In this document: positions 386-39,339 of the stretch, in pieces | How the letters are laid out: the number at the start of each line of letters is the position of its first letter | Position numbering within the stretch: position 1 is the stretch's first letter | NCBI GenBank assembly: GCA_044892525.1 | Contig: CM097885.1 | Coordinates: 19,470,001-19,534,000 of the forward strand | Source: Schmidtea polychroa | Lineage: Eukaryota | Reading direction: 5' to 3' | Length of the DNA: 64,000 bases | Notes under the pieces: model-generated | The model's input: the letters and a program-made list of their open reading frames with translations, nothing else | What the model was told of the DNA's origin: nothing | The model's database searches: none | Translations under genes and position numbers: made by a program

Positions 386-1494
<1,109 letters not shown>

Positions 1495-1498
<4 letters not shown>

Positions 1499-4093: not shown

Positions 4094-4120
4094 ATGTATA
4101 TTGAAACACAAAAAGTTGTC

Positions 4121-4505: not shown

Positions 4506-4547
4506 TAAATGTATCCTTTCCTTTGTTGTTGTGATTATTATTATTAA

Positions 4548-4605
<58 letters not shown>

Positions 4606-14047: not shown

Positions 14048-17000
14048 TGTTGGGCTAGAACTGATTTCTAGACCCAAAGTTAGGAATGGGACGAAATGTG
14101 TCAGTACACAACACGCATACCCAGCATTAAGTTTACTTAAATAAAAATATATAAAACACCAAGTAAACAATGATAATAGAGAGATAATATACCCAAAAAT
14201 AAAACATCTGAATTAAAAATAAAATAAAACACGAGCAAGAAGTATTACATGAAAACTTACTCAAATATAACCAAAAGACATAAAACAACAAAAAACAAAT
14301 TCGAATAAAGGCAATTAGTAAAAATTAAAAAAGAAAATTAAAGAAAATCTTCATAAAATCTTACGTAAAGAAAATTATATCGATATTTTGAATAAAAATC
14401 CAGAACAATTCATAAAAATGGCGAAATCCATCATGACGGCCAAACGACCCAATAAAATTTATAAAAAATAAATATTTTAGTTTAAAAAATAAATATTTTA
14501 GAAAAGAAATCATAAAAAACAATTTAAAAATAAGAAATAGATTAAATTTAGCATGGAATGTTCTGGAAATGCTGAAATCCATCATGGAGGCAAATTTAAT
14601 AAAAAATAATTCGAAAATAAAATTTCAAAAATAAAAACAAAAATTCTTACTGAAAAATCGCCATTAAAATCGATAAAAATTAAAAATCGAATGTTCGAGA
14701 ATTAAAATAATCCGAATTTGTTTTACTGCATCAATGCACGCATGTATACTTACACGTCAAACAGAGGCTATATAAACTAACACATTTCGTCACTTTTGAA
14801 GCAAGAAAAATATGCTAATGTTTACTCTTATGCCAAATTTTTGATTTTGATTTTTCTGAGATTGTAGGTAAGGACGATTTCATTGTGAATTATAAATTAT
14901 TATTATTGAAACCTTGTTTTCATTATTTCTTTTTAACTATAGAAATGTAGGTTTGAGTGAGATCGTCGGTTATCATTGATTTTGGAGCGAGATCCCAGTC
15001 AACCCTGCACCTATGCACTTTATCATCGATGATTAAACAGCCCACAATGATTGCAGGTCACTGCCTGGCACGCACTTATCAATATCATTTGTTTTTTTTT
15101 TTTTTGTTTTGTTCAGGTCATTCGGAGGTCGCACCACTTCATGGTTCTGCCATGGAGTTAAGTCGATGAAATCCTCCGTCTGACTCTACCTATTTATTAT
15201 AGGTCAGTCGTAAAGGGTTGACTTACCACACAACAGTAAGGTTTGTCGTAGTGGTCACAGTGGGGCCGCGAAAGCAAACACTCCTCCCGACTTTCAATGC
15301 ATGAATAATTTACATAGTTAAAATCTACATCCAAAATCATCACAATACAATACACTAAGGTTAATAAACAGAGTAGATCTCAGACCTAAATTAATCACAA
15401 CTCTACAATTCACAATTAATGTAGACGGTTAAATATCATCAAGAACCAACTCTACCTATACGTTTGTCGAATCTAGATTTATAAATGTCCTAAATAAATT
15501 TTCTAGTAATAATGTAAAGTAAAGATTTTTTTTTCTAAATGATTGATTTAGTAGCGATAGTATTCATAAAGGTGTTCGACATGCGTACCGGCAAGACTTG
15601 GATTTTAAATTGAATAGACTCTGAACTAACTATAAAAATACAAATCGTAAACCCATAAAAGTATAAATTATCATCTCAATTGCATAAAAATATGAATTGT
15701 ACTTATAGATTTAATTTCTTCAAAATATAAATTATGATTAGTTATAAAGGTATAAATTACAAATTTAATTTTTCAAAAATATAAATTACAAATCTATATT
15801 GACGGTAAAATTATAAATTATAACTCTAAGTTGATTGTAAAAGTATAAATTATAATCTTAATTTCTTCAAAATATAAATCATGATCTTAAAAGTATAAAT
15901 TATAAAATTATATTAGCTACAAAATATAAACTATAAATTTACCTTAACTTCATAAAAATATAAATCATAAACTTAAAAATATAACTTATAAAATTATATT
16001 AGCTTTAGAAATATAAACTATAAATTGAACTTCACCAAATATAAATTATACACTTAAAAAAAAAAAAAAAAAATTATAAAATTATATTAGCTTTAAAATA
16101 TAAACCATAAAATTAGCTTCATAAAAATATAAATTATAAACTTAAAAATACAAATTATAAAATTATATTAGCTTTGGGAATATAAACTATAAATTGAACT
16201 TCACCAAATATAAATTATAAACTTAAAAGTATAAATTATAAAATTATATCAGTTCTAAAATATAAACTATAAATTTAACTTCATAAAAATATAAATTATA
16301 AAATTATATTAGCTTTAAAATATAAACTATAAATTTAACTTAACTTAGATTGCCTTTAACATCATAGTTGAAAATTTTTCATCAAAGACCCCCCATAAAC
16401 CATATAGTCATCAACTACCACCTAAATATACTAAATTAGCTTATCTTAATATACATTTAACTTATATTATATTTAAAACTATAAATTGTAAAATTTCATG
16501 AATGACCCCCCTCAAAATTATACAGTCATTACCCATTACCTAAGCATACTAAATTGACTTATTTTTAATATATATTTAACTTACATTATAATAAAAAATA
16601 TAAGTTGTAAAATTTCATGAATGACCCCCCCTCAAAATTATACAGTCATTACCCATTACCTAAGCATACTAAATTGACTTATTTTTAATATATATTTAAC
16701 TTACATTATAATAAAAAATATAAGTTGTAAAATTTCATGAATGACCCCCCTCAAAATTATACAGTCATTACCCATTACCTAAGCATTTTAAATTAACTTA
16801 TCTTAATATATATTTAACTTATATTATATTTTAAAATATAAATTGAAAATTTTCATAAATGACCCCCCTTCAAATCATGTAGCCATTAACTATTCCTTAG
16901 GTACACGAAATTATATCATCTTCGTATAGAGCTAAATTATATTTCAAATCAAACCAAAAAATAAATAATTCCATAATTTTCGCAAAAGATACCCCCATAT

Positions 17001-19159
17001 GTGGGAATCTTGTAAAAAAATAAACTTACATTTATTATTATCATTAACATTATTATTATTATCGTTATTAATATTATTATTATTATTATTACTATTATTA
17101 TTATTATTAGTATTATTACCATTAACATTACCACTCTTATCATTATTATTACTATTATCATTACTATTATTATTATATTATTAAAATAATTATCTTTATT
17201 TCAAAAAATAAAATTATAAAACCGATTATTGATTTTGGGATTCCCCTATCTCTAAATTTAGTCTCAATGGCCCTATCTTCCAATAAAATTACGGAAAATC
17301 ACTAAAATCTATTTTTAGCAACACCCCCCCCCGGAAAACGACATCAATATTATTAATTTAAATTATATCCATATATAGGTATGTGTGTATATGTATATGT
17401 ATATATACATGTGTGTGTGTATATATATATATAGGTGTGTGTGTGTATGTACATACAGATTTATAAAGCAACCTTATAAAAATACGATAACCTTCCCCCT
17501 CAAGACCCCTGTTATGTGATGGTCACAACCCCCTTAAGGTGATGGAGCGAGGTTAGAGTAGTTTACTGAAGTAATTTAGTAGAATCATTTATTGATTTAT
17601 TAGAATTATTGGATTTATTTTTAACTAAATCAAAAGAGACTAAATTTATTTTTAACTAGATCAAAAAAAAAAAAAAGAAAAACAAAGACCAAGTTTATTG
17701 ATTTCGATCATCAACTTTATTCATATAATTGTTTCTTTGAATCATAGTTATACCAAGGTCCTTCGAGCACGGTTGATGGACCATCCCAATGAAATACATT
17801 TCCTGGAGTTGGAAGACTTCTGGGTAATTCCTTATTTTCTGCTTCGTTCCTTTTGGTTCAATGACTTACATATTGATTTGACGTAATATTGTTGGATGGC
17901 CAACTATATTCCTTGCATCTCTTTTTGAGTAGTCATTGTCAGATAATTCCGCCAGGAAGATTAGTTGGTGGAGCTGACCTTGGGGCAATCAAACCTTCGT
18001 ACCTCACTGAATTATTATCAACTCGATTGCTAAGGAAATTAATGAAGTTAATTAATTAAATTAAGGAAGTTAATTACAATTTTCTCATTGGTGTTGTCAA
18101 ACGATCTTTGCTCATTCGAGATGTCATAATACATTATTGATCAATAGTAATTGTTCGGAGATTCGGCCAAATGCTGATATTCCTGAAATATTATGAAATT
18201 TTAGGATATAAATGCTTAAAATTTTAATTTATTTACATTATTATATCAAAGTTAACTAAAATCATATATTTATTCAAAATTTGTTATTTAACATTAATTA
18301 TAATTACTATAATAAAACAACGAAAATTTAAATAATGTTAAATAACTTTAACAAAACAAAAAGTAATAATGAAATCAAAATTCCATTACTTTATTTAAAT
18401 TATTAGTTACCAACTTGTTCTAGTATTTTAACATAATGAATTCAAGTATATTACGGAGTTAGTTTGGTCATTTGAGGAATATTATAAATTGAAAATTTAA
18501 GTAGATTAGAATTATTTACTCTTCATAAGAACTTTTATGATTGTAATGAATCTAAACTTCATATATTAATATTACCCATAATTTACAAGTGATATTTGGA
18601 TTATGTTAAAATAGGTTGTAAGTTAACTTAACTAAATTGAAATTTTCTTTTGATCAGGTTATCGTGGGGAATGCATGTTATCTTTATCATTTCTATTGTT
18701 TCAGTTTATTAAGTTTTTTTTTTTTTCTAATTAAATTCATTAGTCTCAGAAATTTCTTGAGGTTTGTTTAATAAACTATGGTTATGTTTCACTTAATTTA
18801 TATTCAAACATTTTAGATGTGGTGTTGTATGAACAGGCTTTAATAGAGTAATGTATGATTCCTGATGACTTATGATCGTTTGAGGATAGAGAGTTTGTAT
18901 AGGCATAGTTGAGGAAGTGATTATAATAAGGGACCTGCGTAAATCGGACATACATCTTCTAACGATAGTCCGTGAACCCATTAGAGTGCTCGACAATTAC
19001 AGTGCAAGTAGTGCGCTCACTTTTTGCGAGTACTCACCCTCTTGATACAGTACCAACGTTGATCGTTCAACGGGTATCAAGCGGTAAACAATGTTGTATC
19101 TTGGGTTACGCTGGTAACAGCACTAAAGAGCAAAATATTTGATCATCAGTAACCCACCA
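14048..19159 (+). repeat. 5' LTR (5112 bp)
   Basis: TGTTGGGCTAG..AACCCACCA; near-identical to 30033-35057. TATA-like GGCTATATAAAC at ~14766. Confidence 0.97.
15650..16900. repeat. Minisatellites inside the LTR (AT-rich AAATATAAATTATAAA units, then ~120-bp ATGACCCCCCTCAAAATT units, about 5 copies)
   Basis: Visible tandem units; the same arrays occur in the 3' LTR at ~31636-32800. Confidence 0.9.
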
Positions 19160-19167
19160 TACAAATT

Positions 19168-19185
19168 TGGGGGCTCAGCCGGGAT
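19168..19185 (+). promoter_or_regulatory. Primer-binding site, tRNA-Pro type
   Basis: TGGGGGCTCAGCCGGGAT versus the MLV tRNA-Pro PBS TGGGGGCTCGTCCGGGAT (16/18), 8 nt downstream of the LTR end. Confidence 0.85.
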
Positions 19186-20046
19186 ATTTAAACTTTCTTG
19201 GTAAAGAACCTGTAAGTAGACGGGAATGCATAGCGGTTTTTTGATCAGAAAATGAAATGCTTTATGCAAGAGTAAGAAAGATTGTTTTCTCAAATAACTA
19301 GACATGATGTGTGAATATGCGTGTATGATCAAAATGAATGTTGAATGTTGTACATGATGAATAAAATGTTTTAAATTATGTAAATATAGAAAATCGATAA
19401 AACTGGGTATGAGAATAATGTATGAGCGTTCCGTGTTGATGGGACAGAATGTTGATGGGTAAGAAATGAAATAAAAATCAAAAATAATAAAAATTGTAAA
19501 TATAAACAACTAATACTTTGGATATAAGAAAATAATAAAAAATTCAAAAATAGGGAAAAGGGGGGGATAGAAAATAACGGTATAAAGAAAAAGGGGATAA
19601 AGCATAAAACAGTGAATTGCGAAATAGAAATGGATAGATGATGCAATTACTTAAAAATAGGGGGAAGATGTAAAACTACGTTAAAGATTAAAGGGGTATA
19701 TTGAGTATTTGATAAAATGACTAAAATTATGGACAAGCTGGGATCAAAAGGGTTATGTAGACTAAGATAATAAACTAGAGGGAACGGATAAGAATGCGCG
19801 GAACATCAGTTAATGGATTGGGAGCCTAAACTAACAGGGTAAAACAGCTATTGAACTTACATAATTTGAATAAGGAAATAAATGGGTAGAGGTAAGCTAA
19901 TTAAAGGGGAATAAGAACACTTAATAAAATGCTGAATTAATAAAGTATAACTTGATGGAATTAACCGGCTACATTATAAAGAAACTTGAAAATTCGTAAA
20001 TTTAACTAACAACTCACTACAAAGATTGAATTGAAAAGCAGAGCAG

Positions 20047-20458
20047 TTGGCAAACACTCAAGAAGGACTGATCTTAAAACCAAGACCAGTAGATGATGAA
20101 TTGTGTATAATGACGAGAATTGCTACACCAAATGTGGAATTAACTACTCAAAGAGTATATCAGATTCAGAATTTACATTTAGATAAGGCCAAATTTAACA
20201 TCAAATGGCAAGAATTAAAGATAAAAATTTAAACGGTTGAAGATGCGATAAGAGAGGCGATCGATAATGAATTCAAATGTTGTGTGTGTAGAAGCAATGA
20301 GATAAAAATAATGATGGTACCTTGCGGACATCTATGTTATTGCCAAGATTGTGCATTGAAACTGAAGCGATTGTAATGTATGTGACGCAAACATGAGAGA
20401 AAGAGTAGTAGTGTACCTCCCTGAGGGAGATGTAGAAAAATTGAAGATGATGAAATGA
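20047..20458 (+). pseudogene. IAP/MIB-type RING-HC E3 ligase remnant in the LTR-element leader
   Basis: After a stop at 20230: CCVCRSNEIKIMMVPCGHLCYCQDCALKL-(1-nt frameshift)-DCNVCDANMRERVVVYL, the C3HC4 pattern of IAP-type RINGs. Confidence 0.8.
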
Positions 20459-21849
20459 ATTGCAGCCGAGTGTGAGTTAGTAAAATGTTAGTAAAACTAA
20501 TTCCATAATAGCAACCGAAAGGTATAAAACATACGTTGAACATAGACATATGAAATACACAAAAGCCGTTAAATAAATAGACAAGCAACACACAAATTAA
20601 ATTGGCGAAAGCCGTGAATTAAATACAGGACTGGCTGGGATCGCATCAAGTGTGAGCTGATCTATAAGATCAGTACGATTACCATTTTTTTCCTGTTTTT
20701 TTTTTTTTATTTTTGGCATAGAGAGACAGGACCATAAGGGGATGAGAAGCATATCGTCCCTACGATGCTTACCCGGATGGGGAAATCCTGATCACCTTGA
20801 TGAGAAGAGTATAGTAGGGCCCATCGCAAATGTTGGGGAGTTTCTGTCGAGTGACTGATCACCACTTGTGGGAAATGAACCAACGCGATTATTATATTTT
20901 TTGAATTTGGGAGACAAGGACAAACTAGAAAGGTAAATAAAAAGAAAAAGATAAAAAATAAAAATTGAAAAGGTGCACCAAAAGATAAAAATTTTAATTA
21001 TCCGAGAGCAGCTGCGGATTTGAAGAAACCGTTTTTGGACTTCAAATCGGATGATATGAATTTTCCCTAGCGAGTGATGAGGCACCCGAGTACAGCGGCT
21101 AACCACCGGACTGTAGTGTCCAGGAGATTATCAGCCAAGGGACTGATGATGCTGGATCACCCAATACAAAAACCCGGATACCCACACCGAGTATTGGGTG
21201 CAATTTTTTTTTGATTGGCTAGCGGGACTTGATACAAAAACCCGGAGGGTAGCGAGCGAGAGAGACCCAGTTACCTACACCGAGTATTAAGGAGCCCAGT
21301 GAAACGGTTGTGAGATGCGGGTCAACCGGTAAAGGACTCGTACTCAACAGGCAACCAAGATTGGACCAGTTGTGAGGCGGGAGACCGAGAGTCAACTGCA
21401 TATCCAATTTCCTTTTATCTTCACTAGTCGGGAGATCTGGTTCATCACTTTTGAGAATCAAGATCGAGGCGATTAGGCATTTCCGTGTTTTTTAAATCCT
21501 GATAGATAGGATGTTTTTTCTTCGTGATTATTGCTAGCAGGGGTCGGTACAAAACCCGGATGCCCACACCGAGTACCGATAGGCCCAGTGAAACGGCGAT
21601 GAGATTAGGGTTACCGGTATTAAACTCTTTTCAATAGGCGGCCAAGAATTGAGCTAGTTGTGAGGCCTCAGCAGATTAATAATTTGAGTAGGAGGAACCT
21701 TAAATTTTTAATTGGTCCGAAAGTCAACTGTCAACTCAATTTAATCGCGGTAGGGACGATAGTAGGTGTAAAAACTGAAGGCGTCTGGGGGTTGAAGAAA
21801 CCTCATTTAGGGCATTTGAAACCGATCAGGGACCGAAGACCGCGAATAC

Positions 21850-22480
21850 GGCGTAAAGGTGTAAAAGCCCAGGCGTCTAGGAGTCGTAAAAGACTTCAAA
21901 GATTAAAAGTATAATTAAACCGGCCGGAAGCCGATGCCGACGCGGAGGTCGAATAAACCGAAGCGTTGATGGTTGATAGTGAATTATATGGCGTAACGGT
22001 GTAAGAACCCAGGCGTCTAGGAGTCGTAAAAGACTTCAAAGATTAAAAGTATAATTAAACCGGCCGGAAGCCGATGCCGACGCGGAGGTCGAATAAACCG
22101 AAGCGTTGATGGTTGATAGTGAATTATATGGCGTAACGGTGTAAGAACCCAGGCGTCTAGGAGTCGTAAAAGACTTCAAAGTTTAAAATATGATTAAACC
22201 GGCCGGAAGCCGATGCCGACGCGGAGGTTTAATAAACCGAAGCGTTGATGGTTGATAGTGAATTATATGGCGTAATGGTGTTAAAGCCCAGGCGTCTAGG
22301 AGTCGTAAAAGACTTCATGAGATTAAAATGAGTTGATTAAACCGGCCAGAGAGCCGATGGTAATTGAATGAAAATAAATGATTTAAATGAAATAAGAGAG
22401 GTGATTAAACCAGCCAGGGAGCCGATGGTAAATAAATGTAGACGTAGAGGTCGCGCGAACCGAAGCGTCGATGATTAACT
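21850..22480 (+). repeat. 140-bp GC-richer tandem repeat (3 full copies plus degenerate ones)
   Basis: Units start at 21850, 21990, 22130 and 22269. Confidence 0.95.
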
Positions 22481-23295
22481 ATGAACGAAATAAAAGAGAT
22501 AAACGATTAAGATGAAATCGATTAAATTGACATAGATTAAGTGCGACAAAGAGGTAATGATTAAAGGAAAATTATGATAGAGCGCCGGCGCAAGAGAAAC
22601 TGAAACCAAATTTTTGAATGGGGAAAAGCGAAGAGAGATTAAGTTACTGATGAGTTTAATATGTATATGACTAATGATATATATTTTTTAATTATATAAT
22701 TGATGTTGTGATTATATGATAGATAATTGATACGACGATATAGATAATTCATACGAGTTATAGATAATTAAAAATGGACTTAAATTCAAAGGGGGGTGAG
22801 TAGCAAAAAGTAAAAGCGTACCATCAATTAGAAAAGGAACAGCGAGAGAAATAATGAGTAAAGAGTAGTATAAAATAAAGAAAATAGGGAAATAAATGAA
22901 GGGTAGGATAAAATGAATAAAATATTATGATATGTACTAGGAGTGTTAATTATTTTAGAATAAGTCAATCAATAAGTCAGAAGGAAGTCAATACAAGCCA
23001 AGAATTCAAGAGAAATAAAGAGAAATCAAAAATTCAAAAGAAAACAACTAAGGAATCAAGAGAATCAAACGAGGATAGAAGAAAGGTAAACAAAGTCAAA
23101 TTAAATAACAAGAGGAAAATTAAAGCGTTGGCCAACGAAACACAGTGAAATTCAAAAGAGATTATTAAAGCAAGAAAAATTGATAATCAAGCCAATCGAA
23201 CGAGATCGCAGAGCAAAGGAGGCTCTAGTTTATTAGGAAACGCAGGGAGACAAAGAGCCAAGAGAAACAGAAGAATCAATAAGAAACCAGCGTCA

Positions 23296-26200
23296 GTGAA
23301 AACATTATTTGAATCAGACAGCTTAACCAACGAAGGTGAAAACAGCGACGATATTAAAAGAAACGAATTATATCCGGTAACTGATATCAAACCAACAGAC
23401 AAGGAAGATAGTAGTTCAGGCATGACAAGTTCGTGTCGAGATATAATGTTAGACGGAAACCAAGTGAACAACCCGAATGGGTCAGAGTCGACATACACAC
23501 CCGAGATAAACCATGTCAACGTCAATGTTGGAGAATTTAGAGAAAGATTTCGAGGAGAACCATTCGATGGGAATATTAATGAACTAGAAACGTTTATAAA
23601 AGAATTCGAGGTATATATTACGATATGTCACTGGCCAGACATAGTCGTACGAGAGCGAATACCATTATATTTAAGAGGAAGTGCACAAGATGTATATTTA
23701 GAGGCAAAGTGTGATACAACAAAACTAAAAACATGGAAATCAATAAAGAATTTTTTAATAAAAACATTCGGTAGCAAAAGGGAAGTAAATCGCAAAATGT
23801 TGGATTTTCTGCATCGAAAGCAGAAATACAATGAGTCAAACGCACTATATGCAGGTGAATTAAGACGACTGGCAAAAGAAGCATTCGATTCAAATCAAAC
23901 AGTTCCGGAAGACAAGATAATAGCCGTATTCGTAGAGGGTATGAAAAGAAAGGACATACGAGCAACAGTGGGTTGCCGAGCGCCAGACACGCTCGAGGAA
24001 GCATTAAAAATCGCTAATAAATGTGAAAACTACTTGACTCCAGTACAAGTAGCAGCAATGGCAGCAGTACCAATAGCTACAACACCAACAACGACAACCG
24101 AAATTAATCAAACCAACAATGAAAATCTAGGAATGAATCAATTTATCTCAGAATCGCAACAGTTGTTCAAGGCGCCAAAAACGACAAATCCAGATAACAG
24201 AGGTAATATTCAATTTTACACTAATAATTTCAGGAGCAACGAGAACAATAATCGGAAGTGTAACATATGTCAACGACTAGGACATTGGAGCAACGAGTGT
24301 TATAAGACAAGGATGTGCCAAAATTGCGGTAAAAGGGGTCACACAGAAAATATATGCCGAGGACCAATGATGTCGATGAGAAGAGGAAGGACTAGAACCT
24401 GCTACAGTTGCAACCAACTTGGACATGTGGCGAGAGAATGCGCGATGAAGACAAAACATAATCAACCAAGAGCAAACGATCCAAGTCAAAATATACAAAT
24501 CAACATCATGCAGAAAATTGAACAGTTGAAAAAGATGATCCAACGGATACCAGAGGATATCCGGAAACGACCAACAAGAGAACAACAAGACCAGCAACGA
24601 ATCGAAGGGCAGAGACCACTAAACGAAAAAGCCAGAGAAATTCAAAAAAGATGGAAAAAGCGAGAAACCAACACCGGAAGAATAAATATGATGAGATTAA
24701 TGAACAAAGGGGAACCGCACACTGCGGAGCAGTGTGTTAACAAGAAAGGGAGCGATATGACCGTAATCAACGAGACAAAAGTGATAAAAGAAAATGGGTC
24801 ACATCAATTGACGGAGCAATTGACAGAACTGAGTAGCGAGGATAAAATAAAAATAATACAAGGGTTCACCAAAGAAGAAAAAGAAAAGAGACGAAGAAGA
24901 GATGAAACAGGGCACGAACCAAAAAGCAACGAGATTGTTACAAAGAATCGAATTCAGAGGGTATTACTACAAAAAATTGAAGATAGAATTAGAAGAGAAG
25001 AACCAAAATTAACGGATGAGCAAGTAAAAGAAAAAGTAAAAGACAACTGGTTCAGGAAAAATGAGTGGTTCGAAAAAGAACCAAGTAACAGAGCCAATAT
25101 AAACATGCTGAGACAAATACAGAATGATCAGACGGATCAGGAAGACGGGAAAAGTGCGATGAGTAGCCTGAGAAGTGAATTATCTCAATCAAGTGATGAA
25201 AATAATGAACAAGGAACACCTCAAAATAACGAAGAGGGTGAGAGCGACGATATGGGATCACTGATAGAAAATGACGATGAGGAAATATTCGAGGAAATTT
25301 CCGACATGGTATCGGAAAGAGAACGAAATGAGAGCTATATCAACGAACCAACATACAGAAAATGTATAAAACTGATAACTCAAGCATACCAGTGGGAAGG
25401 AGATATATTAACGGCAACATGGAAAGATTTGGTGACGAAATATAAAGGAAAATTGAAAGAAGTTGATCCAGATCAATACCAAGTAAGTATTCAACACCCT
25501 GAAACTCAGATACAGATTATTGAATTAAAAGTAACAAATACCGATAAACTGTATAATTGGGTACAACAAAAGATGGGAACAAGTCATAAAAATAAACAGC
25601 TATACGACAATGGTTATAAAGTTAAAATGAGCATACATTTAGTAGATATGATGAGATGGCCAAACGAAGTTAATATCTTAATCTTAAAGAAAAACAGAGA
25701 CAGCGAATCAGTAACGGAAATACTGAGGAAAATCCAACAGATATTCAACAATGAAGTGGAACCAGAAATAGAAAAGACTGAACAAAAGATAATGAAGGAA
25801 AATCAAATAATCTTAGTAAAACAAGCAATCGATCAAACGAAGAAATATATTAACAGATTTAGGGAAAGATGGCCGCAGCTAATGAAACAGTTTGTCAAAG
25901 ACGTACGGGATACTGAGATTATGGGATTTGAATATAAACGAGCAACGGAGTTGATATCAAAATATGGTGAATACGAGAGAATCAGATGTGAACAAGAATT
26001 ACCATGGCCATCCAACAGAAAAGTGACAATAGTAAGAGAATCACTAAAGAATAGTCATTTAAATAAACACGAAGAAATGATCAAAACATCACATGTCGAA
26101 GACGACATTTTTGGAAAAGGCCGGAGTGGAAAAAATGACAAAGACCATAACGACAAAAATGAGGAAGACGACGGGAACCATGAAAGGAACAACATAAATG

Positions 26201-27861
26201 GGAACTCAAACGAACGAGATAATGAAGAAGACAAGGAGTCAGAAGATGACGACGAAGACTTGAAGGATACTGAGGACAACTCAGACCAAAGTGAAGACAA
26301 CCAACTTAATGAAACAGAGAACGACAAACGAAAGTCCCCACTGCATAACATAGTAATGCGGAAGAATCTAAACCAGTCACTCCTACTACAAATTATCCTA
26401 ATAATACTAACGTCAATTTGCCTAACAGAAACGAAAAATACGCGAATTACGAGAGGAAATCTGAAAGAAGGCGAACTATTCATGATAAAAGTCAGCGGCA
26501 ACAACGGAAACGCGGTCGGGATATGCATCCAATTGATGGAAGGAACCGGAGTAAGTTGTGATTTTAGAACGATAACAAAAGGGAGGATTTTCAATAGTCA
26601 AAATGTAGAACCTGAATTATGCGGAGACTACAACATTTGCGAAGACATAACATCAGAAGAAAAAGAATTGGAAAGAGCTAACGAAACCGGAGTACATGTC
26701 GCAATTAAAGCTACAATGGAAGGTATCGAAATAATAGATAAAGGAAATTTGCCAACAACGCAAATATGTTTTAGAGATGACGAAGACATATGTATAACGG
26801 TGGACATGAAACGAGATCGCGAATTTTTTTGGACAAACGTAAAACCAAACACCAACATGGTGGTATGCGCAGGTACCCAGGCAATAGTGGTATGTAAAGC
26901 AGTTAAAACCGCGCAAATAAAAAGCAGGCCAAAAAGTATGGCTAGTAAACGATATCAACCAAGGATCAAACCGGCAATTAAGAAACGCCAGAAACAATCC
27001 CGTAGGGGAATGATAAGAGGACAGCACCAAACCAAGAAAAACAAAACAGTAATATGGATCAAAGATGAGAGACGAGAAGTACTAGTAAATGTCGAATTCA
27101 ACAAGAAAAGAGAAGAAGTAATCACGGTCAGAAACCAAGGTGAAGAACCAATAGTAAGAGTATGTGTACTAAACAGGACAGGAATAGTCGACTGCATAGA
27201 AACACTACTTGACAAAGGTGCAGAAGTTAAAATGACAATAGGAGAAAGAAAGGGACGATATCACATATGCGTTCTTAAAAACGGAAGCGATTTAAGTTCA
27301 TGCCAAGCAATAACCAGACAACGACCACGGATGATAAACATACTATTGACAACCAGAAAACCAAAAGAAGTGGAAAAGCCAAAAGGAAACGAACATCTAA
27401 CGGCAGAAGAAACGAAACAGTTATACCAGATGCTCAAGAAAAATAAAACACAAGAGGCAACTACAACAGAAACTAAAATGATGATAACGACAGGAAAATT
27501 CAACGAGACACTGATAACCGTTAAAATGATGTGGATCGCTAGCGCAATAATGAGTGCAGTGATAACATCAATAATAATCCAATGGATAAGAACCTCCAAA
27601 ATATGTAAACAAAAACCTAAAGGCAGAAAAAGATGGCCACAAGTGGAGAATTCCGAATATGGTATTCCAACCGAAGACCCGAATCCAGAAGAGTACGAAG
27701 CGATTGAAGATCCAAGGTCAAGCAGACTATGGACGCAAGAATTACTCAGAATACAAACCCTAGACGATTGGGTAAACGAATTTGACATATACCGGCTAAC
27801 GGATGAAAGATATGGGGGAATGCGCACATTGCATTCAGGTCCCCTGGCAACAATGGTATAA
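23296..27861 (+). CDS. gag: Gag polyprotein (capsid plus 3 CCHC knuckles) fused to acidic/coiled regions and a Cys-rich type I membrane (Env-like) module; no PR/RT/RH/IN recognised
   Basis: PFDG..FIKEFE..W..LRGSAQ and RKQKYNESNALYAGELRRLA (capsid/MHR-like); CNICQRLGHWSNEC, CQNCGKRGHTENIC, CYSCNQLGHVAREC; hydrophobic segments at ~26377 and ~27526. The same frame extends upstream to 22927 through one TGA at 23146. Confidence 0.9.
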   Translation: MKTLFESDSLTNEGENSDDIKRNELYPVTDIKPTDKEDSSSGMTSSCRDIMLDGNQVNNPNGSESTYTPEINHVNVNVGEFRERFRGEPFDGNINELETFIKEFEVYITICHWPDIVVRERIPLYLRGSAQDVYLEAKCDTTKLKTWKSIKNFLIKTFGSKREVNRKMLDFLHRKQKYNESNALYAGELRRLAKEAFDSNQTVPEDKIIAVFVEGMKRKDIRATVGCRAPDTLEEALKIANKCENYLTPVQVAAMAAVPIATTPTTTTEINQTNNENLGMNQFISESQQLFKAPKTTNPDNRGNIQFYTNNFRSNENNNRKCNICQRLGHWSNECYKTRMCQNCGKRGHTENICRGPMMSMRRGRTRTCYSCNQLGHVARECAMKTKHNQPRANDPSQNIQINIMQKIEQLKKMIQRIPEDIRKRPTREQQDQQRIEGQRPLNEKAREIQKRWKKRETNTGRINMMRLMNKGEPHTAEQCVNKKGSDMTVINETKVIKENGSHQLTEQLTELSSEDKIKIIQGFTKEEKEKRRRRDETGHEPKSNEIVTKNRIQRVLLQKIEDRIRREEPKLTDEQVKEKVKDNWFRKNEWFEKEPSNRANINMLRQIQNDQTDQEDGKSAMSSLRSELSQSSDENNEQGTPQNNEEGESDDMGSLIENDDEEIFEEISDMVSERERNESYINEPTYRKCIKLITQAYQWEGDILTATWKDLVTKYKGKLKEVDPDQYQVSIQHPETQIQIIELKVTNTDKLYNWVQQKMGTSHKNKQLYDNGYKVKMSIHLVDMMRWPNEVNILILKKNRDSESVTEILRKIQQIFNNEVEPEIEKTEQKIMKENQIILVKQAIDQTKKYINRFRERWPQLMKQFVKDVRDTEIMGFEYKRATELISKYGEYERIRCEQELPWPSNRKVTIVRESLKNSHLNKHEEMIKTSHVEDDIFGKGRSGKNDKDHNDKNEEDDGNHERNNINGNSNERDNEEDKESEDDDEDLKDTEDNSDQSEDNQLNETENDKRKSPLHNIVMRKNLNQSLLLQIILIILTSICLTETKNTRITRGNLKEGELFMIKVSGNNGNAVGICIQLMEGTGVSCDFRTITKGRIFNSQNVEPELCGDYNICEDITSEEKELERANETGVHVAIKATMEGIEIIDKGNLPTTQICFRDDEDICITVDMKRDREFFWTNVKPNTNMVVCAGTQAIVVCKAVKTAQIKSRPKSMASKRYQPRIKPAIKKRQKQSRRGMIRGQHQTKKNKTVIWIKDERREVLVNVEFNKKREEVITVRNQGEEPIVRVCVLNRTGIVDCIETLLDKGAEVKMTIGERKGRYHICVLKNGSDLSSCQAITRQRPRMINILLTTRKPKEVEKPKGNEHLTAEETKQLYQMLKKNKTQEATTTETKMMITTGKFNETLITVKMMWIASAIMSAVITSIIIQWIRTSKICKQKPKGRKRWPQVENSEYGIPTEDPNPEEYEAIEDPRSSRLWTQELLRIQTLDDWVNEFDIYRLTDERYGGMRTLHSGPLATMV

Positions 27862-28299: not shown

Positions 28300-29350
28300 A
28301 TAACAAACAGTTGATAAGCCAAATAAAATGGGAGGCAGGAGAAATCGGGAGATTACACGAAAACCATCAGCATGATGATATAACGAGTTAAGTTGAATGG
28401 ATAACCGGCCTACCAGGAACTGGGGAACCGGACTCAACGAGAGAGGCATAAAAGAAGGGAAAAGTAGCCCTGTAAACAAACAAAATTATAGCCAAAGTAG
28501 AAAATCCGAAATTAAACGCTATCATGGCAGAATGCCGAGGGAAAGTGGAGAGAAGTGGAGGAACAAAACTATTAATTATGAGCTGATAAGAAAATATTAG
28601 GTCAAGTCAGATGAATTCGAGGAGAGACTATTGTGTGTGGACAAAGTGTGTAGAAGATTATTAATAGGACACGTCAAACCCTATGAGGATGTAGATTATG
28701 CCATGGAGGTACTACACGAATTGTAACGAGAAAAGCAGAAATTAAAGAGAGAACCACAGCAAGAATCAGCCACATCCCAGATGACAATAATAATAAAAAT
28801 CTTAGAAGAAATAAAGCAGCGAATAATGATGACTGTCAACGAATGTCCGAGCAACTATGAAACAAAGACGCTCGAAGAAATAAAGGAAAGAATAAATAAC
28901 GCAGTCAAAGAAAAGACAATTACTCAAGATGAAATAATAAAAACATTGAGAGAGATATAGATGGAAATAATAACAACTATTGACAAAATCCCGATGAACC
29001 ATGAGACAATGACCAAAACTTTAGAAGGAATAAAGAGGAGAATATCAACTACCTTCAACGAAGACTTCGCATACTAAAATGTCCTAATAAAGATGTTCAC
29101 GGAAATCTGGAAAGGAGTAATGACGACAGTAAACAATACCCTACACACTGAATCAAATAACCTCGAAGAGGAACTCAACTCGACTGATACAATCCAACTA
29201 ATGAAAACAGTGAGCACGTTGCGAGAGATATAGAAAGAAGTGACAATCAAAACAAGGTCAGCAGAAAAAAAAAAAATTGAATGTAAAGAAAACCCAGAAT
29301 CCATAACAGTACTGATCCTGTCAGCAGCGAATCTCATGATAAATAACAAT
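28300..29350 (+). pseudogene. Probable decayed second ORF of the LTR element
   Basis: Same purine-rich coding bias as gag, with protein-like pieces (ECPSNYETKTLEEIKERINNAVKEK.., MFTEIWKGVMTTVNN) broken by stops. No family recognised. Confidence 0.4.
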
Positions 29351-30032
29351 ACTGAGCTTGATAGCCCTTAAACCCACTCAAATCCATGAAAGCACCAAAA
29401 TCTCTCAAGTTGAAAGAACAATTCCGAAGCATTCGCATTCTAATAGACGAACCAATACCCAGAGACCAAATCTATCAAATCTATCAAATCTATCTTCTAC
29501 AACCTTCAAAACTAGAACCGTCATCGAGACGAGATCCCGAACAACCGAGTGTTTAAATCCTGATATAAACCGACAATGATCTTGATATAATATGACAACG
29601 ATATTGAGTTGATTGACAATGTTCTTATTATGTGTTGACAATGATCCTGATTCGATTGACAATGATCTGAAAATGATCTAGATGTGATTTAATAATGATC
29701 CTGACATGATACAACAATGATATGATTTGATTATTATTGTGATTTGATGCCAATATTATATATTACTATGATATTATTTGAGCATAACAATTTGATTAAA
29801 TTTTGTGTGGACCGACCTTGGTCTTCTTTCTCTTCATCTGTAAACCAATCTGTAGCATGTAGCTTATCAGTAGAAACTTTTTATGTATGTGGGTATTGAG
29901 GTCACGACCCTGTAGCTCGTGGACCCAATTACATGTAGGCACTTGTAATACAGTGCAACCAATTCTGTCTAATTATATCTTGAACATTGATTAAATTGCG
30001 GGTCGCAATTTTATGGGCCCCCGAGTGTTTTA

Positions 30033-33000
30033 TGTTGGGCTAGAACTGATTTCTAGACCCAAAGTTAGGAATGGGACGAAATGTGTCAGTACACAACACG
30101 CATACCCAGCATTAAGTTTACTTAAATAAAAATATATAAAACACCAAGTAAACAATGATAATAGAGAGATAATATACCCAAAAATAAAACATCTGAATTA
30201 AAAATAAAATAAAACACGAGCAAGAAGTATTACATGAAAACTTACTCAAATATAACCAAAAGACATAAAACAACAAAAAACAAATTCGAATAAAGGCAAT
30301 TAGTAAAAATTAAAAAAGAAAATTAAAGAAAATCTTCATAAAATCTTACGTAAAGAAAATTATATCGATATTTTGAATAAAAATCCAGAACAATTCATAA
30401 AAATGGCGAAATCCATCATGACGGCCAAACGACCCAATAAAATTTATAAAAAATAAATATTTTAGTTTAAAAAATAAATATTTTAGAAAAGAAATCATAA
30501 AAAACAATTTAAAAATAAGAAATAGATTAAATTTAGCATGGAATGTTCTGGAAATGCTGAAATCCATCATGGAGGCAAATTTAATAAAAAATAATTCGAA
30601 AATAAAATTTCAAAAATAAAAACAAAAATTCTTACTGAAAAATCGCCATTAAAATCGATAAAAATTAAAAATCGAATGTTCGAGAATTAAAATAATCCGA
30701 ATTTGTTTTACTGCATCAATGCACGCATGTATACTTACACGTCAAACAGAGGCTATATAAACTAACACATTTCGTCACTTTTGAAGCAAGAAAAATATGC
30801 TAATGTTTACTCTTATGCCAAATTTTTGATTTTGATTTTTCTGAGATTGTAGGTAAGGACGATTTCATTGTGAATTATAAATTATTATTATTGAAACCTT
30901 GTTTTCATTATTTCTTTTTAACTATAGAAATGTAGGTTTGAGTGAGATCGTCGGTTATCATTGATTTTGGAGCGAGATCCCAGTCAACCCTGCACCTATG
31001 CACTTTATCATCGATGATTAAACAGCCCACAATGATTGCAGGTCACTGCCTGGCACGCACTTATCAATATCATTTGTTTTTTTTTTTTTTTGTTTTGTTC
31101 AGGTCATTCGGAGGTCGCACCACTTCATGGTTCTGCCATGGAGTTAAGTCGATGAAATCCTCCGTCTGACTCTACCTATTTATTATAGGTCAGTCGTAAA
31201 GGGTTGACTTACCACACAACAGTAAGGTTTGTCGTAGTGGTCACAGTGGGGCCGCGAAAGCAAACACTCCTCCCGACTTTCAATGCATGAATAATTTACA
31301 TAGTTAAAATCTACATCCAAAATCATCACAATACAATACACTAAGGTTAATAAACAGAGTAGATCTCAGACCTAAATTAATCACAACTCTACAATTCACA
31401 ATTAATGTAGACGGTTAAATATCATCAAGAACCAACTCTACCTATACGTTTGTCGAATCTAGATTTATAAATGTCCTAAATAAATTTTCTAGTAATAATG
31501 TAAAGTAAAGATTTTTTTTTCTAAATGATTGATTTAGTAGCGATAGTATTCATAAAGGTGTTCGACATGCGTACCGGCAAGACTTGGATTTTAAATTGAA
31601 TAGACTCTGAACTAACTATAAAAATACAAATCGTAAACCCATAAAAGTATAAATTATCATCTCAATTGCATAAAAATATGAATTGTACTTATAGATTTAA
31701 TTTCTTCAAAATATAAATTATGATTAGTTATAAAGGTATAAATTACAAATTTAATTTTTCAAAAATATAAATTACAAATCTATATTGACGGTAAAATTAT
31801 AAATTATAACTCTAAGTTGATTGTAAAAGTATAAATTATAATCTTAATTTCTTCAAAATATAAATCATGATCTTAAAAGTATAAATTATAAAATTATATT
31901 AGCTACAAAATATAAACTATAAATTTACCTTAACTTCATAAAAATATAAATCATAAACTTAAAAATATAACTTATAAAATTATATTAGCTTTAAAATATA
32001 AACCATAAAATTAGCTTCATAAAAATATAAATTATAAACTTAAAAATACAAATTATAAAATTATATTAGCTTTGGGAATATAAACTATAAATTGAACTTC
32101 ACCAAATATAAATTATAAACTTAAAAGTATAAATTATAAAATTATATCAGTTCTAAAATATAAACTATAAATTTAACTTCATAAAAATATAAATTATAAA
32201 ATTATATTAGCTTTAAAATATAAACTATAAATTTAACTTAACTTAGATTGCCTTTAACATCATAGTTGAAAATTTTTCATCAAAGACCCCCCATAAACCA
32301 TATAGTCATCAACTACCACCTAAATATACTAAATTAGCTTATCTTAATATACATTTAACTTATATTATATTTAAAACTATAAATTGTAAAATTTCATGAA
32401 TGACCCCCCTCAAAATTATACAGTCATTACCCATTACCTAAGCATACTAAATTGACTTATTTTTAATATATATTTAACTTACATTATAATAAAAAATATA
32501 AGTTGTAAAATTTCATGAATGACCCCCCCTCAAAATTATACAGTCATTACCCATTACCTAAGCATACTAAATTGACTTATTTTTAATATATATTTAACTT
32601 ACATTATAATAAAAAATATAAGTTGTAAAATTTCATGAATGACCCCCCTCAAAATTATACAGTCATTACCCATTACCTAAGCATTTTAAATTAACTTATC
32701 TTAATATATATTTAACTTATATTATATTTTAAAATATAAATTGAAAATTTTCATAAATGACCCCCCTTCAAATCATGTAGCCATTAACTATTCCTTAGGT
32801 ACACGAAATTATATCATCTTCGTATAGAGCTAAATTATATTTCAAATCAAACCAAAAAATAAATAATTCCATAATTTTCGCAAAAGATACCCCCATATGT
32901 GGGAATCTTGTAAAAAAATAAACTTACATTTATTATTATCATTAACATTATTATTATTATCGTTATTAATATTATTATTATTATTATTACTATTATTATT

Positions 33001-35057
33001 ATTATTAGTATTATTACCATTAACATTACCACTCTTATCATTATTATTACTATTATCATTACTATTATTATTATATTATTAAAATAATTATCTTTATTTC
33101 AAAAAATAAAATTATAAAACCGATTATTGATTTTGGGATTCCCCTATCTCTAAATTTAGTCTCAATGGCCCTATCTTCCAATAAAATTACGGAAAATCAC
33201 TAAAATCTATTTTTAGCAACACCCCCCCCCGGAAAACGACATCAATATTATTAATTTAAATTATATCCATATATAGGTATGTGTGTATATGTATATGTAT
33301 ATATACATGTGTGTGTGTATATATATATATAGGTGTGTGTGTGTATGTACATACAGATTTATAAAGCAACCTTATAAAAATACGATAACCTTCCCCCTCA
33401 AGACCCCTGTTATGTGATGGTCACAACCCCCTTAAGGTGATGGAGCGAGGTTAGAGTAGTTTACTGAAGTAATTTAGTAGAATCATTTATTGATTTATTA
33501 GAATTATTGGATTTATTTTTAACTAAATCAAAAGAGACTAAATTTATTTTTAACTAGATCAAAAAAAAAAAAAGAAAAACAAAGACCAAGTTTATTGATT
33601 TCGATCATCAACTTTATTCATATAATTGTTTCTTTGAATCATAGTTATACCAAGGTCCTTCGAGCACGGTTGATGGACCATCCCAATGAAATACATTTCC
33701 TGGAGTTGGAAGACTTCTGGGTAATTCCTTATTTTCTGCTTCGTTCCTTTTGGTTCAATGACTTACATATTGATTTGACGTAATATTGTTGGATGGCCAA
33801 CTATATTCCTTGCATCTCTTTTTGAGTAGTCATTGTCAGATAATTCCGCCAGGAAGATTAGTTGGTGGAGCTGACCTTGGGGCAATCAAACCTTCGTACC
33901 TCACTGAATTATTATCAACTCGATTGCTAAGGAAATTAATGAAGTTAATTAATTAAATTAAGGAAGTTAATTACAATTTTCTCATTGGTGTTGTCAAACG
34001 ATCTTTGCTCATTCGAGATGTCATAATACATTATTGATCAATAGTAATTGTTCGGAGATTCGGCCAAATGCTGATATTCCTGAAATATTATGAAATTTTA
34101 GGATATAAATGCTTAAAATTTTAATTTATTTACATTATTATATCAAAGTTAACTAAAATCATATATTTATTCAAAATTTGTTATTTAACATTAATTATAA
34201 TTACTATAATAAAACAACGAAAATTTAAATAATGTTAAATAACTTTAACAAAACAAAAAGTAATAATGAAATCAAAATTCCATTACTTTATTTAAATTAT
34301 TAGTTACCAACTTGTTCTAGTATTTTAACATAATGAATTCAAGTATATTACGGAGTTAGTTTGGTCATTTGAGGAATATTATAAATTGAAAATTTAAGTA
34401 GATTAGAATTATTTACTCTTCATAAGAACTTTTATGATTGTAATGAATCTAAACTTCATATATTAATATTACCCATAATTTACAAGTGATATTTGGATTA
34501 TGTTAAAATAGGTTGTAAGTTAACTTAACTAAATTGAAATTTTCTTTTGATCAGGTTATCGTGGGGAATGCATGTTATCTTTATCATTTCTATTGTTTCA
34601 GTTTATTAAGTTTTTTTTTTTTTTCTAATTAAATTCATTAGTCTCAGAAATTTCTTGAGGTTTGTTTAATAAACTATGGTTATGTTTCACTTAATTTATA
34701 TTCAAACATTTTAGATGTGGTGTTGTATGAACAGGCTTTAATAGAGTAATGTATGATTCCTGATGACTTATGATCGTTTGAGGATAGAGAGTTTGTATAG
34801 GCATAGTTGAGGAAGTGATTATAATAAGGGACCTGCGTAAATCGGACATACATCTTCTAACGATAGTCCGTGAACCCATTAGAGTGCTCGACAATTACAG
34901 TGCAAGTAGTGCGCTCACTTTTTGCGAGTACTCACCCTCTTGATACAGTACCAACGTTGATCGTTCAACGGGTATCAAGCGGTAAACAATGTTGTATCTT
35001 GGGTTACGCTGGTAACAGCACTAAAGAGCAAAATATTTGATCATCAGTAACCCACCA
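30033..35057 (+). repeat. 3' LTR (5025 bp)
   Basis: Copy of 14048-19159, differing visibly by one ~88-bp minisatellite indel and homopolymer lengths. Confidence 0.97.
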
Positions 35058-35935
35058 ATAGCAAGGTTTAGATGACAATTTTTCTTCTCAAATTTCGATC
35101 AGTTATAGGGTCATAATTAATCTCATTCAAGAAACCGGTATACTTACTCACTCTATTCCAATGATTTCTAATCTGATCATGTTTTAATACAGCAAGTACA
35201 CTATATATAAAAAGCACATATTGTCTGTATTCTTAATGTTCACTATTGCAGTTTTATTATACAACGATGTTGGTGTTGGTATATATAAATGGCCGGATAA
35301 GCGATTAATTGGATAATATTTTGTCAAGATAAACACAATTTCTTTAATTTTATTTATTCGCCACCCACTACCGAGATATGTAAATTTATCTATTTTCTCG
35401 TTTGATTTTTGTGACCCTTTAATAATAAAATCATCCGAGAAAACAAGTGCTGTATTTGAAAAATAGTTGTCCCTAATTTCTCCATCTTTTTCAAATTGTA
35501 TAAAAACTGTAAATTGTATTTTTTCAGACCCGATCTTGCTTATTTCTAATGCTAGATGAACCCTAATTTTATCCGTTAAAGATATTTGAATCAATTGATG
35601 TTTAGAAACATCAAATCGTAGATTTTTTCGAGCACTTTGAAACTCGATAGTTATAATAGGATCATCATCTACATGTAAAGACCCTCCTACTTGATTAATA
35701 GGAATACGAGGGGAATCAGCAACACCTGCTTCATTGTCACTTTTTTAATAATTTTAGTTGAGACAACTTCATTTTTATTTTTTACAGACCTTTTATTGTT
35801 ATTATTATTAATTATGTTAAAGAATTGCCTATTAAAGATTTCTCTAAACATTTCCTTCCTATTTGATGAAAACTGATTTATTAAATGTATTCACTGTAAA
35901 ACTCTTTAAAAGTAGAATGGTTAATAGTCTTGCAT
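35058..35935 (-). pseudogene. pPolB A, N-terminal part (continues at 14047); 5' limit approximate
   Basis: KIQF..GSGWRINKI..YIPTP..AIVNIKNTDNMCFLY, the Polinton pPolB N-terminal motifs. Confidence 0.88.
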
Positions 35936-36813: not shown

Positions 36814-36960
36814 TTGTGAATTTGAAAATAAATTGTGACAAAACTACCAATGTCAATGTTTATAAAGTGATTGTGACTTTAAAAATCAAACAATCAACAA
36901 CATATACATTTTAAAATCAATAAAATAGATTAAACAATAAAATAAAACCAGAAACATTTA

Positions 36961-37345
36961 TTATAAATCAAATATTTTATACACCAACCATATTAAACAG
37001 TGTTGACCCCATGTTTGAGTCATTGAATTTTGAAACATTGTTTTATTATATACAATAGGTTTACCCATTCTTTGAAATTTCGATACCAATAACGCAGGAT
37101 AATAGAATCCCATAGGATCGAATACATGTATCCTATCGGGTTTTACATAGACTCCAATCCAATGTTGACCACCAAGATGTGATGAATGGGTATTGACGAT
37201 TATGTCTTGATTATTACGTAAATATGGTATTTTATTCAATGGATATACTCCAACAAACTCATTTCCTAAAAACTGTTTTCCAATTCGATTGACCTGTATA
37301 AAACTACCTCAATAAATTAGATAATACACAAAGAACTTACTCCAT
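36961..37345 (-). pseudogene. Adenain-type protease, copy 2 (37-nt intron 37304-37340; catalytic Cys replaced by Trp)
   Basis: MDFIQVNRIGKQFLGNEFVGVYP..GQHWIG..FDPMG..QTWGQHC. Confidence 0.9.
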
Positions 37346-37379
37346 GACAAATTTTTAATATTACCAAACGCATTTTTAC

Positions 37380-38267
37380 CTATACCAGAACAGTTCTATT
37401 TGCAGTAATTCGTACCTCATTTTCAAATACTCCATATATTCTAACATGCACAGGTTCTGCAATAGCTTTTGCAAACTTTATATCTAATCGTAAATTTCCA
37501 TTTGGAGGTAATTGACTCTGATTCAAATCAAAATCAGGTGCGAAAACAAATGTAAAGAACGGTTATTTGGTTTTGAATTCTTCAGGAATTATTCCACAAT
37601 TCAAATTTTTATCTAAATAGTCCATATTTCTTGCAATACTTTGCATATATGTAGCAGAGTAATTATCATTATCAAAATCTTGATTATATGTTTCTCTATA
37701 ATCAGTATTTTTCGATAGTGACAAGGATGTAACATCAAAGTTTTTGAAAATTGAGCTTGAAGCAATGTATGATCCATTATATGGAGTTTCAGATTGAAAT
37801 GTTATCAGAATCAAGTTTGGCATTCTTCTATCTCCATATATTTGTTCCTTATAGAAGGAAGAAGCACCTTTGGCTATTGCAAATGAAACAATTTCTTTGG
37901 TTTTCAGTGGATAGATCGCATGCTTAGAATTAAGACCCAACTGATGACCTGCTAATACCGACGGATCAACTCGAACTCGTCTTACTTGTAATTTTGCATC
38001 AACTAATTGACATATTGGTTGACCATTAGCACTAGTTAGTGACAATGCAGAATCGGTTCTTTTCAACCTAATGTGCACATTGACTCCTGGAAGTAAATAT
38101 TATGGTTGATCTAGAAAGTCAGCTGTAATGATGAACACATGGTAAAAATCTTTGAGCCTTTAATCCACTTTTTTCTATCGTCATCAGTTCCCGCATAGCC
38201 CATAGGAGTAAGATATGTATTTTTAGTATCGGTATTATAATTTAAAATAGTTTCTATTATCGCCTTG

Positions 38268-38270
<3 letters not shown>
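37380..38270 (-). pseudogene. Major capsid protein, copy 2; 5' part lost at a (TA)n tract
   Basis: Closely similar to 3205-4093 (HKAIIETILNYN..VRRVRVDPSVLAGH..GNLRLDIKFAKA); frameshifts. Confidence 0.93.

Positions 38271-38331
<61 letters not shown>
38271..38331. repeat. (TA)n microsatellite at the deletion junction
   Basis: Visible directly. Confidence 0.97.
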
Positions 38332-38337
<6 letters not shown>

Positions 38338-38415
38338 CCTTAATTAACCTATAACATTTAAAATTCATTTCTTTGTATACCAAAAATCATTTCAGACTTT
38401 GTTAATTAGCATAAA

Positions 38416-39325: not shown

Positions 39326-39339
39326 GCGATGTATCTGCG

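Follow-up and report, generated by a model that had tools for sequence, protein, structure and literature searches.

A predicted membrane protein at the C-terminal end of a Burro-type polyprotein, retained behind Gag in a deleted LTR retroelement family of Schmidtea polychroa

The window described here, a 64,000-nt stretch of the Schmidtea polychroa genome (GCA_044892525.1, contig CM097885.1, positions 19,470,001 to 19,534,000), contains an LTR retroelement of about 21 kb at 14048-35057, flanked by the two copies of a 4-bp target-site duplication (TSD), ATAG, at 14044-14047 and 35058-35061. All features of this element are read on the forward strand. The 5' LTR (14048-19159; 5,112 bp, TG...CA) and the 3' LTR (30033-35057; 5,025 bp) showed no substitutions over 5,023 aligned bases, and the element is a young insertion. 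A PBS-like stretch at 19168-19185, a putative tRNA-Pro match, is identical at 17 of 18 bases in a larger, autonomous element of the same genome (the partner element, described below), and LTR ends, PBS and 3' border are common to the two. Neither domain searches nor alignment with the partner revealed a protease, RT, RNase H or integrase in the window element. We observed instead three broken relics of partner genes outside its main open frame: the upstream RING-finger ORF at 19990-20422, which carries stops and a frameshift and is broken in 6 of 6 other copies examined; the TRAF ORF at 28496-28669, broken in 20 of 20 copies; and, by comparison with the partner, its last accessory ORF (341 aa) at 28730-29549.

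The only long coding region left is a single frame of 1,570 aa from stop to stop (23149-27861), which corresponds to a deleted Burro-type polyprotein. It starts with Gag, comprising a capsid at 23560-24036 (Ty3_capsid, E 8e-7; Retrotrans_gag, E 2e-6) and three CCHC zinc knuckles found by Pfam search at 24259-24444. It then passes through an 18-codon relic of the partner's MATH domain (25999-26052), placed by partner alignment between two in-frame deletion junctions, and an acidic linker (26149-26337) that is homologous to the linker 3' of the partner's ankyrin repeats. Three recurring motifs between Gag and the membrane anchor described below are possible protease sites. The last 501 codons (26356-27861), referred to here as the module, continue this frame without a stop, as had been proposed from the sequence alone.

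Along the whole frame, hydropathy rose to a peak at two places only, aa 1074-1092 (Kyte-Doolittle 2.04) and aa 1460-1481 (1.83). The first corresponds to a predicted internal signal peptide or signal-anchor at 26368-26427, assigned from hydropathy and charge and preceded by 5 basic residues; the second is a predicted TM helix with a basic stop-transfer sequence (27526-27591), followed by 7 basic and no acidic residues. Between them lie block A (26446-26676; 4 Cys), the most conserved part of the ectodomain; block B (26677-26916; 4 Cys), weakly similar to block C in profile comparison; a poorly conserved linker (26917-27063) that is basic in the window and Thr/Lys-rich in the partner; and block C (27064-27330; 4 Cys), a predicted Ig-like beta-sandwich. 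A predicted cytoplasmic tail with four conserved Tyr residues and a class I PDZ-type C-terminus, T-M-V, occupies 27592-27858. By these sequence properties (signal, domain rich in Cys and sequons, one TM segment, basic stop-transfer) the module looks like a type I surface protein of a kind not described before, lying within a polyprotein. The sequence-only reading had recognized the signal-like and TM segments and the Cys pairs, and all 12 ectodomain Cys are indeed kept in the partner. It had also seen three Cys-paired units; likeness among the blocks was weak in pairwise profile comparisons (B with C, E 0.017; A with C, E 0.14; A with B, E 0.45). Several sequons are likewise present: the 365-aa ectodomain has 6, where shuffled sequences gave 2.7, and the tail has none. 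The excess is modest, and only some positions coincide between window and partner.

Other parts of that reading did not hold. The sequence RQRPR, proposed as a furin-like site, does not fit R-x-[K/R]-R and reads RQKPQ in the partner; a motif scan found no such site anywhere in the module. The frame has no third hydrophobic peak that could serve as a fusion peptide, and Pfam and structural searches matched the module to no fusogen family. The module is thus, as had been stated, unlike F-type or retroviral Env in that it lacks a fusogen match and the combination of a furin site with a hydrophobic fusion peptide behind it. Nor is a private start at ATG 26356 supported: this ATG is not conserved in the partner family, where the position reads either Val in 26 and Met in 2 of 28 copies, or Phe, according to whether it is placed by alignment or by the neighboring invariant residues, and the Met taken as the module start in the partner example copy is Val in 26 of the 28. 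In both families the module is in frame with the polyprotein, with no separate ORF after pol. Contigs of uncertain type covered the element evenly, and none showed a joint ending near 26356. The likeliest reading of the hydrophobic segment at the start of the module is that of an internal signal, and the same holds for the segment that precedes the partner's Env.

The partner's example copy (G000:C1:32655001-32695000) is 35.5 kb long with 5,048-bp LTRs, and encodes a polyprotein of 4,791 aa in the order Gag, zinc knuckles, MATH, Env, protease, RT, RNase H, integrase, ankyrin repeats and module, together with accessory ORFs for TRAF (465 aa), BIR-RING (392 aa) and RING (160 aa) proteins. Its Env, at aa ~1890-2500, matched PF24664, the Monjiviricetes/chuvirus-type fusion glycoprotein, with E 4e-71; no PF24664 match was found by Pfam in the module, which lies at aa 4288-4791, downstream of the integrase and ankyrin repeats. 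The partner thus has a distinct Env of gB/chuvirus type, lying in frame after Gag and before the protease, and the proposal that the module is the element's env is not borne out. In the partner, the hydrophobic core of the module's signal segment is short and contains an Arg, and this signal may be a weak one or escape cleavage. Of 16 loci sampled by way of the BIR domain, 14 belonged to the same autonomous family, with modules 91-99% identical where covered, and no third lineage was found among the 16. An RT search of the genome returned other families, and genome searches with Baculo_F and dUTPase yielded nothing informative.

Burro, or GYPSM1, elements are giant Gypsy LTR elements reportedly described from planarians by Jurka in 2007 and by Grohme et al. 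in 2018. The partner agrees with the Burro description in its size (>30 kb), ~5-kb LTRs, ~4,800-aa ORF and BIR cargo, and in the succession of Gag, three CCHC knuckles, MATH, in-frame env before the protease, Pol and ankyrin repeats (PMC6431247, excerpt); in Burro polyproteins, too, env lies in frame between gag and pol/protease (same excerpt). By description, the partner therefore matches a Burro element. It differs in that the excerpt of that description mentions no membrane protein after integrase and ankyrin repeats and no non-autonomous family. Compared with Burro, the window copy is shorter (21 kb) and is without Env, Pol, most of MATH, the ankyrin repeats and intact accessory ORFs.

Alignment showed that the window frame consists of partner aa 6-967 (71% identical) joined to aa 4184-4791 (54%), with aa ~968-1250 and ~1270-4185 removed by two in-frame deletions. 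The true Env and Pol having been deleted, the module, which is the C-terminus of the parent, came to sit behind Gag; by alignment, the Gag-'env' fusion arose through deletion and the module is no env, contrary to the view of a Gag-Env polyprotein as a design in its own right. What stands of the earlier proposal of a new type of surface protein is the predicted, apparently undescribed type I protein within a polyprotein, without the env identity. An assembly artefact in a single copy can be dismissed, since the junction was identical in 20 of 20 further copies, picked mostly for open frames, and the family numbers at least 86 copies, all 94-100% identical (86 scored of 668 genome-search candidates). 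The frame reaches at least 1,560 aa, with an uninterrupted module, in 55 of the 86, and in 10 a stop falls inside the module; the Gag-module fusion is therefore the family's normal form. A Gag query gave 110 matches at 94-100% identity whose longest frame was 1,587 aa, frames of 4,791 aa appearing first at 89%. There are multiple independent insertions with TSDs. On sequence grounds, the window family is a Pol-less and Env-less, non-autonomous derivative of a Burro-type element. We are highly confident of this anatomy and origin, in which the module is the native C-terminal end of the parental polyprotein, retained in a deletion family.

We compared selection on the module in the two families. 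In the partner, shared variants comprised 56 synonymous and 31 non-synonymous changes (pN/pS 0.15) in 28 copies, 2 of 30 loci having been set aside because their start was shifted. None of the 28 varied at any of the 12 ectodomain Cys or at the C-terminus; the module is therefore a working protein in the partner. Its tail is among the best conserved parts, including the four Tyr, and the last 25 codons are 92% identical between window and partner, with pN/pS 0.10. In the deleted family, by contrast, 21 copies gave 12 synonymous and 38 non-synonymous shared variants (pN/pS 0.86, p 0.6) and the 30 closest copies 5 and 24 (pN/pS 1.3), so that selection on the module was not detectable in either sample; the two families differ at p 7e-6. 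Thus the dN/dS test across copies proposed from the sequence alone gave purifying selection in the partner family only. The between-family dN/dS of the module, 0.26 (CI 0.19-0.34), does not establish that the deleted family is under selection: the broken relics gave 0.12-0.13, and most of the signal therefore predates the deletion. Still, the frame is unbroken over the 608 codons that follow the junction, against ~9 breaks in 450 codons of the three relics (Poisson p 5e-6, valid only if relics and frame decayed over equal time). Upstream of the module, aa 434-950 of the deleted family's frame had pN/pS 0.47 (p 0.002), and the module did not differ significantly from the remaining frame (p 0.22). 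Three insertions whose TSDs differ carry an identical stop at module codon 30, and a second stop is common to two of these three; two insertions share a stop at codon 82, and a single copy has one at codon 12. Stop-bearing copies at several insertion sites argue that the module is not needed in cis, and the deleted family probably tolerates it as a passenger, or it acts there in trans only.

Folded as a single sequence the module gave a poor model; with 29 natural copies as the alignment, block C formed a beta-sandwich (pLDDT 67-87), and blocks A and B stayed below 50. The best structural match of block C (Z 9.1, rmsd 2.5, 76 aligned residues) was one of many tied Ig-like domains, ten chains of unrelated beta-sandwiches reached Z 8, and Foldseek against PDB returned nothing at E 0.001; the fold of block C is therefore uninformative on function. 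FN3 domains of CD45 and IFN receptors, at Z 7.0-7.3, were tied with many unrelated sandwiches. The module's Y-x-hydrophobic-C strand with a second Cys, together with the TM and PDZ-type tail, may resemble the membrane-proximal FN3 of LRFN, FLRT and LRRN proteins; unlike these LRR-FN3 adhesion proteins, the module has no match to Pfam fn3 or, by sequence, to PDB. Two BFVD rows at E <0.001 had rmsd 25-31 and were set aside as noise from the unfolded part, and a CofB_beta-rpt match on block A (E 7e-4, 30 residues) was below its own cut-off.

Sequence searches with the module were empty in Pfam (nothing above cut-off), in the PDB, in a word index of proteins of 878-2,505 aa and of 2,749-5,000 aa, and in HMMER, where a profile built from two sequences matched none of 1.84 billion representatives at E 0.001. 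ESM Atlas gave no usable match for the whole module or block C. The module thus matched no known accessory domain, in agreement with what had been supposed. The searched libraries did not return Burro proteins either, so that these empty results reflect poor coverage as much as novelty.

Three further families from the same genome, B, C and D, were found through their Env or module and bear on the position of the module. Their polyproteins, of 3,334, 3,419 and 3,437 aa, contain Gag, a related Env (31-34% identical to the partner's) and Pol (44%), Env lying after Gag and before Pol, and their C-terminal part consists of a signal, an ectodomain, a TM segment and a very short tail ending in E-T-x-L/V. 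The B, C and D modules are 34-50% alike among themselves and show no significant profile similarity to the module studied here (E 0.19-0.29); a profile of the B/C-family modules found nothing among proteins of 211-714 aa. All four Env-bearing families examined in the genome thus end in a predicted C-terminal membrane protein, which suggests, from sequence comparison, a recurring accessory slot beside the gB-type Env. Given the missing similarity, convergence or coincidence may account for the common slot.

The class I PDZ consensus is S/T-x-hydrophobic-COOH (PMC4810129, excerpt). The module ends in TMV in the window and TLV in the partner, and families B, C and D end in TRL, TWV and TFV, so that by consensus the C-terminus is a candidate class I PDZ ligand; these occurrences count as two independent lineages and not as five events. 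The terminus was of this type in 30 of 30 deleted-family and 28 of 28 partner copies. Within the proteins the pattern has a background frequency of 0.024-0.036, and none of 6 partner accessory ORFs ends in it.

In the aggregate, we favor the reading that the module is a second type I membrane glycoprotein, native to the C-terminus of the polyprotein, that serves as an attachment or positioning partner of the gB-type fusogen (probability about 0.5). The attachment or positioning role by itself, proposed by analogy, falls slightly short of an even chance. By this mechanism, the internal signal would re-enter the ER after the cytosolic Pol-ankyrin part, and signal peptidase would free a protein with two or three disulfide-stabilized beta-sandwiches outside, one TM segment and a tail with Tyr and PDZ motifs inside. 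The ectodomain might then bind a neighboring cell and the tail attach to PDZ scaffolds, bringing Env and capsids to cell contacts, which is the weakest step. The deleted family would be copied in trans by the partner's Pol. Transfer between cells, as first suggested for the module, may still occur, the module then acting alongside the real Env and not in its place.

Known systems offer parallels. Errantiviruses with gB-type Env in the order GAG-ENV-POL occur in Platyhelminthes, Nematoda and Bryozoa, with six Schmidtea entries in supplement 1 (PMC13524379, excerpt). The partner likewise has a chuvirus/gB-like Env between Gag and Pol, and the window element has no env. Herpes gB requires gD, gH and gL, and the entry of gB-type errantiviruses is called unknown in the same source. 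The excerpt of its main text describes no second membrane protein and contains no mention of accessory, fibronectin, immunoglobulin, PDZ or Burro. How such retroelements enter without the herpes helper glycoproteins is called unknown there, and the predicted second membrane protein, under selection in the partner and placed alike in the polyproteins of all four families examined, is a concrete candidate for a part in gB-type retroelement entry. The likeness to gB with gD/gH/gL is a functional analogy, that of a class III fusogen and a separate Ig-like surface protein. HTLV-1 Env and rabies G resemble the module in having a class I PDZ motif at the glycoprotein C-terminus, which in HTLV-1 Env serves localization to cell contacts, according to an excerpted account. 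The herpesvirus, HTLV-1 and rabies glycoproteins give no sequence or specific structural match to the module, and the partnership is one that we infer. More speculatively, entry may have two components throughout, a class III fusogen and an exchangeable attachment glycoprotein in two unrelated versions, both PDZ-ended, with the deleted family supplying the latter and borrowing Env and Pol; we consider this rather unlikely.

The main rival to an attachment role is that the module mimics a receptor and tunes host survival or immune signaling, its tail recruiting PDZ and SH2 proteins and working with TRAF, IAP, RING, MATH and BCL2-like cargo, with no part in entry. The partner's TRAF, BIR-RING, RING and in-frame MATH fit signaling equally well, as do the BCL2-like motif of Burro elements (PMC6431247, excerpt) and the highly conserved tail with its four Tyr, and rabies G is described, in an excerpt, as using a PDZ motif to control neuron survival. 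Against these points, the membrane proteins of B, C and D have very short tails, no MATH, TRAF or BIR homologues were seen aligning to their polyproteins, and inspection by eye found no canonical TRAF-binding motif; we hold such mimicry to be improbable, at about the level of the two-component scheme. Interference is a further alternative, in which the module on the producing cell occupies a receptor or blocks re-entry by Env, possibly used by the deleted family against its helper. Env fragments of endogenous retroviruses are an established cause of receptor interference in vertebrates, and the predicted Ig-like ectodomain, the endocytic-type Tyr motifs and the open frame kept in most copies are in keeping with a decoy. 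But the deleted family shows no detectable selection on the module, which leaves interference with a small chance.

Two explanations concern the deleted family itself. The membrane anchor alone might be useful there, if the internal signal held the Gag precursor at ER membranes for assembly, with ectodomain and tail merely carried along: copies with the codon-30 stop keep Gag and the signal segment and were mobilized, and aa 434-950 are constrained where the module is not. However, one copy has its stop as early as module codon 12, the difference between module and rest of the frame has a p of only 0.22, and cleavage at the possible protease sites between Gag and anchor would release mature Gag; an anchor function is thus doubtful, a little more so than receptor mimicry. 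The sequence-only reading, that the module is a fusogen or env substitute by which an Env-less family moves between cells on its own, we regard as the least probable of all. It can point to the module being the sole membrane protein left in a family whose copies number at least 86 and keep the full frame open in 55 cases, to the frame having stayed open against the decay of the relics (under equal decay times), and to Env-less Drosophila elements that spread by means of a small TM protein (PMC11952523, excerpt). Yet the parent carries the module alongside a true Env; furin site, fusion-peptide peak and fusogen match are missing; stops at codons 30 and 82 are shared by three and two insertions; and a Pol-less family must be co-expressed with its partner anyway. 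The Drosophila protein, sORF2 of the MDG1 group, is like the window family's in being a TM protein of an Env-less LTR element, and differs in being short, FAST-like and encoded by a separate ORF in autonomous elements (same excerpt). The module, of ~480 aa with an ectodomain of ~365 aa, is part of a polyprotein with no ORF of its own and derives from an Env-bearing parent, and identity with FAST/sORF2-like fusogens was rejected on these grounds.

The element class and its in-frame env were already known; the C-terminal membrane protein, its recurrence and the non-autonomous family did not turn up in the literature searched, and annotation of the Gag-'env' fusion is corrected to that of a deletion product. 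The excerpts available of PMC8532177, PMC13238120, PMC11410931 and PMC11952523 mention no such C-terminal protein, and Grohme 2018 or Repbase may annotate the domain. As to expression, Burro transcripts have been mapped by FISH in a planarian (PMC8532177, excerpt), and one raw RNA run, from another organism, contained 5 partial reads matching the element.

We observed that the polyprotein frame of the window remains open for 99 codons ahead of its first conserved Met (window 23149-23446), as does that of the autonomous partner element, and that dN/dS over this upstream stretch is 0.39; translation of the frame may therefore begin at a non-AUG codon. The long non-coding leader carries tandem 140-bp repeats together with other GC-rich repeats (window 21846-22359 and 21000-21700), which share 84% identity with the partner and possibly serve as a packaging signal.

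Three copies of an R-I-N-M-M-like motif are present in the window frame (window 24496-25110), and in the partner polyprotein the motif also occurs where one domain borders on another; we regard these motifs as candidate protease sites. None was found between the ankyrins and the signal of the partner polyprotein, so the ankyrin part may remain tethered to the membrane. The last accessory ORF of the partner (341 aa, positions 2259-3281 of extracted sequence L034) looks like a third membrane protein, with a hydrophobic N-terminus followed by a Cys cluster, a coiled region, a hydrophobic segment and a tail; a Pfam search with it returned no family above cut-off.

In a family-C copy at G000:C52:148576-152874 of the S. 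polychroa genome (extracts L074-L075), nearly all of pol is gone, and a single 1,433-aa frame still holds Env and the C-terminal membrane module. This copy is a second, independent Pol deletion in which the module was retained. The family-B tail bears a late-domain-like PPxY motif directly ahead of its PDZ-type end (extract L066:9100-9191).

Copies of the window's family also occur in pairs ~16 kb apart, at G000:C1:85870672 and 85887082, G000:C2:16295277 and 16311278, and G000:C1:199549081 and 199565097. Since this spacing equals the element length minus one LTR, the pairs are probably tandem elements with a common LTR.

Elsewhere in the window, we recognised by eye decayed Polinton/Adintovirus-like pieces (650-4552 and 36912-42462), containing an integrase-chromodomain, small ORFs and type B DNA polymerase fragments and accompanied by an inverted 1.4-kb pair (82%), and hAT-like transposase remnants (8946-9902 and 48616-49737).
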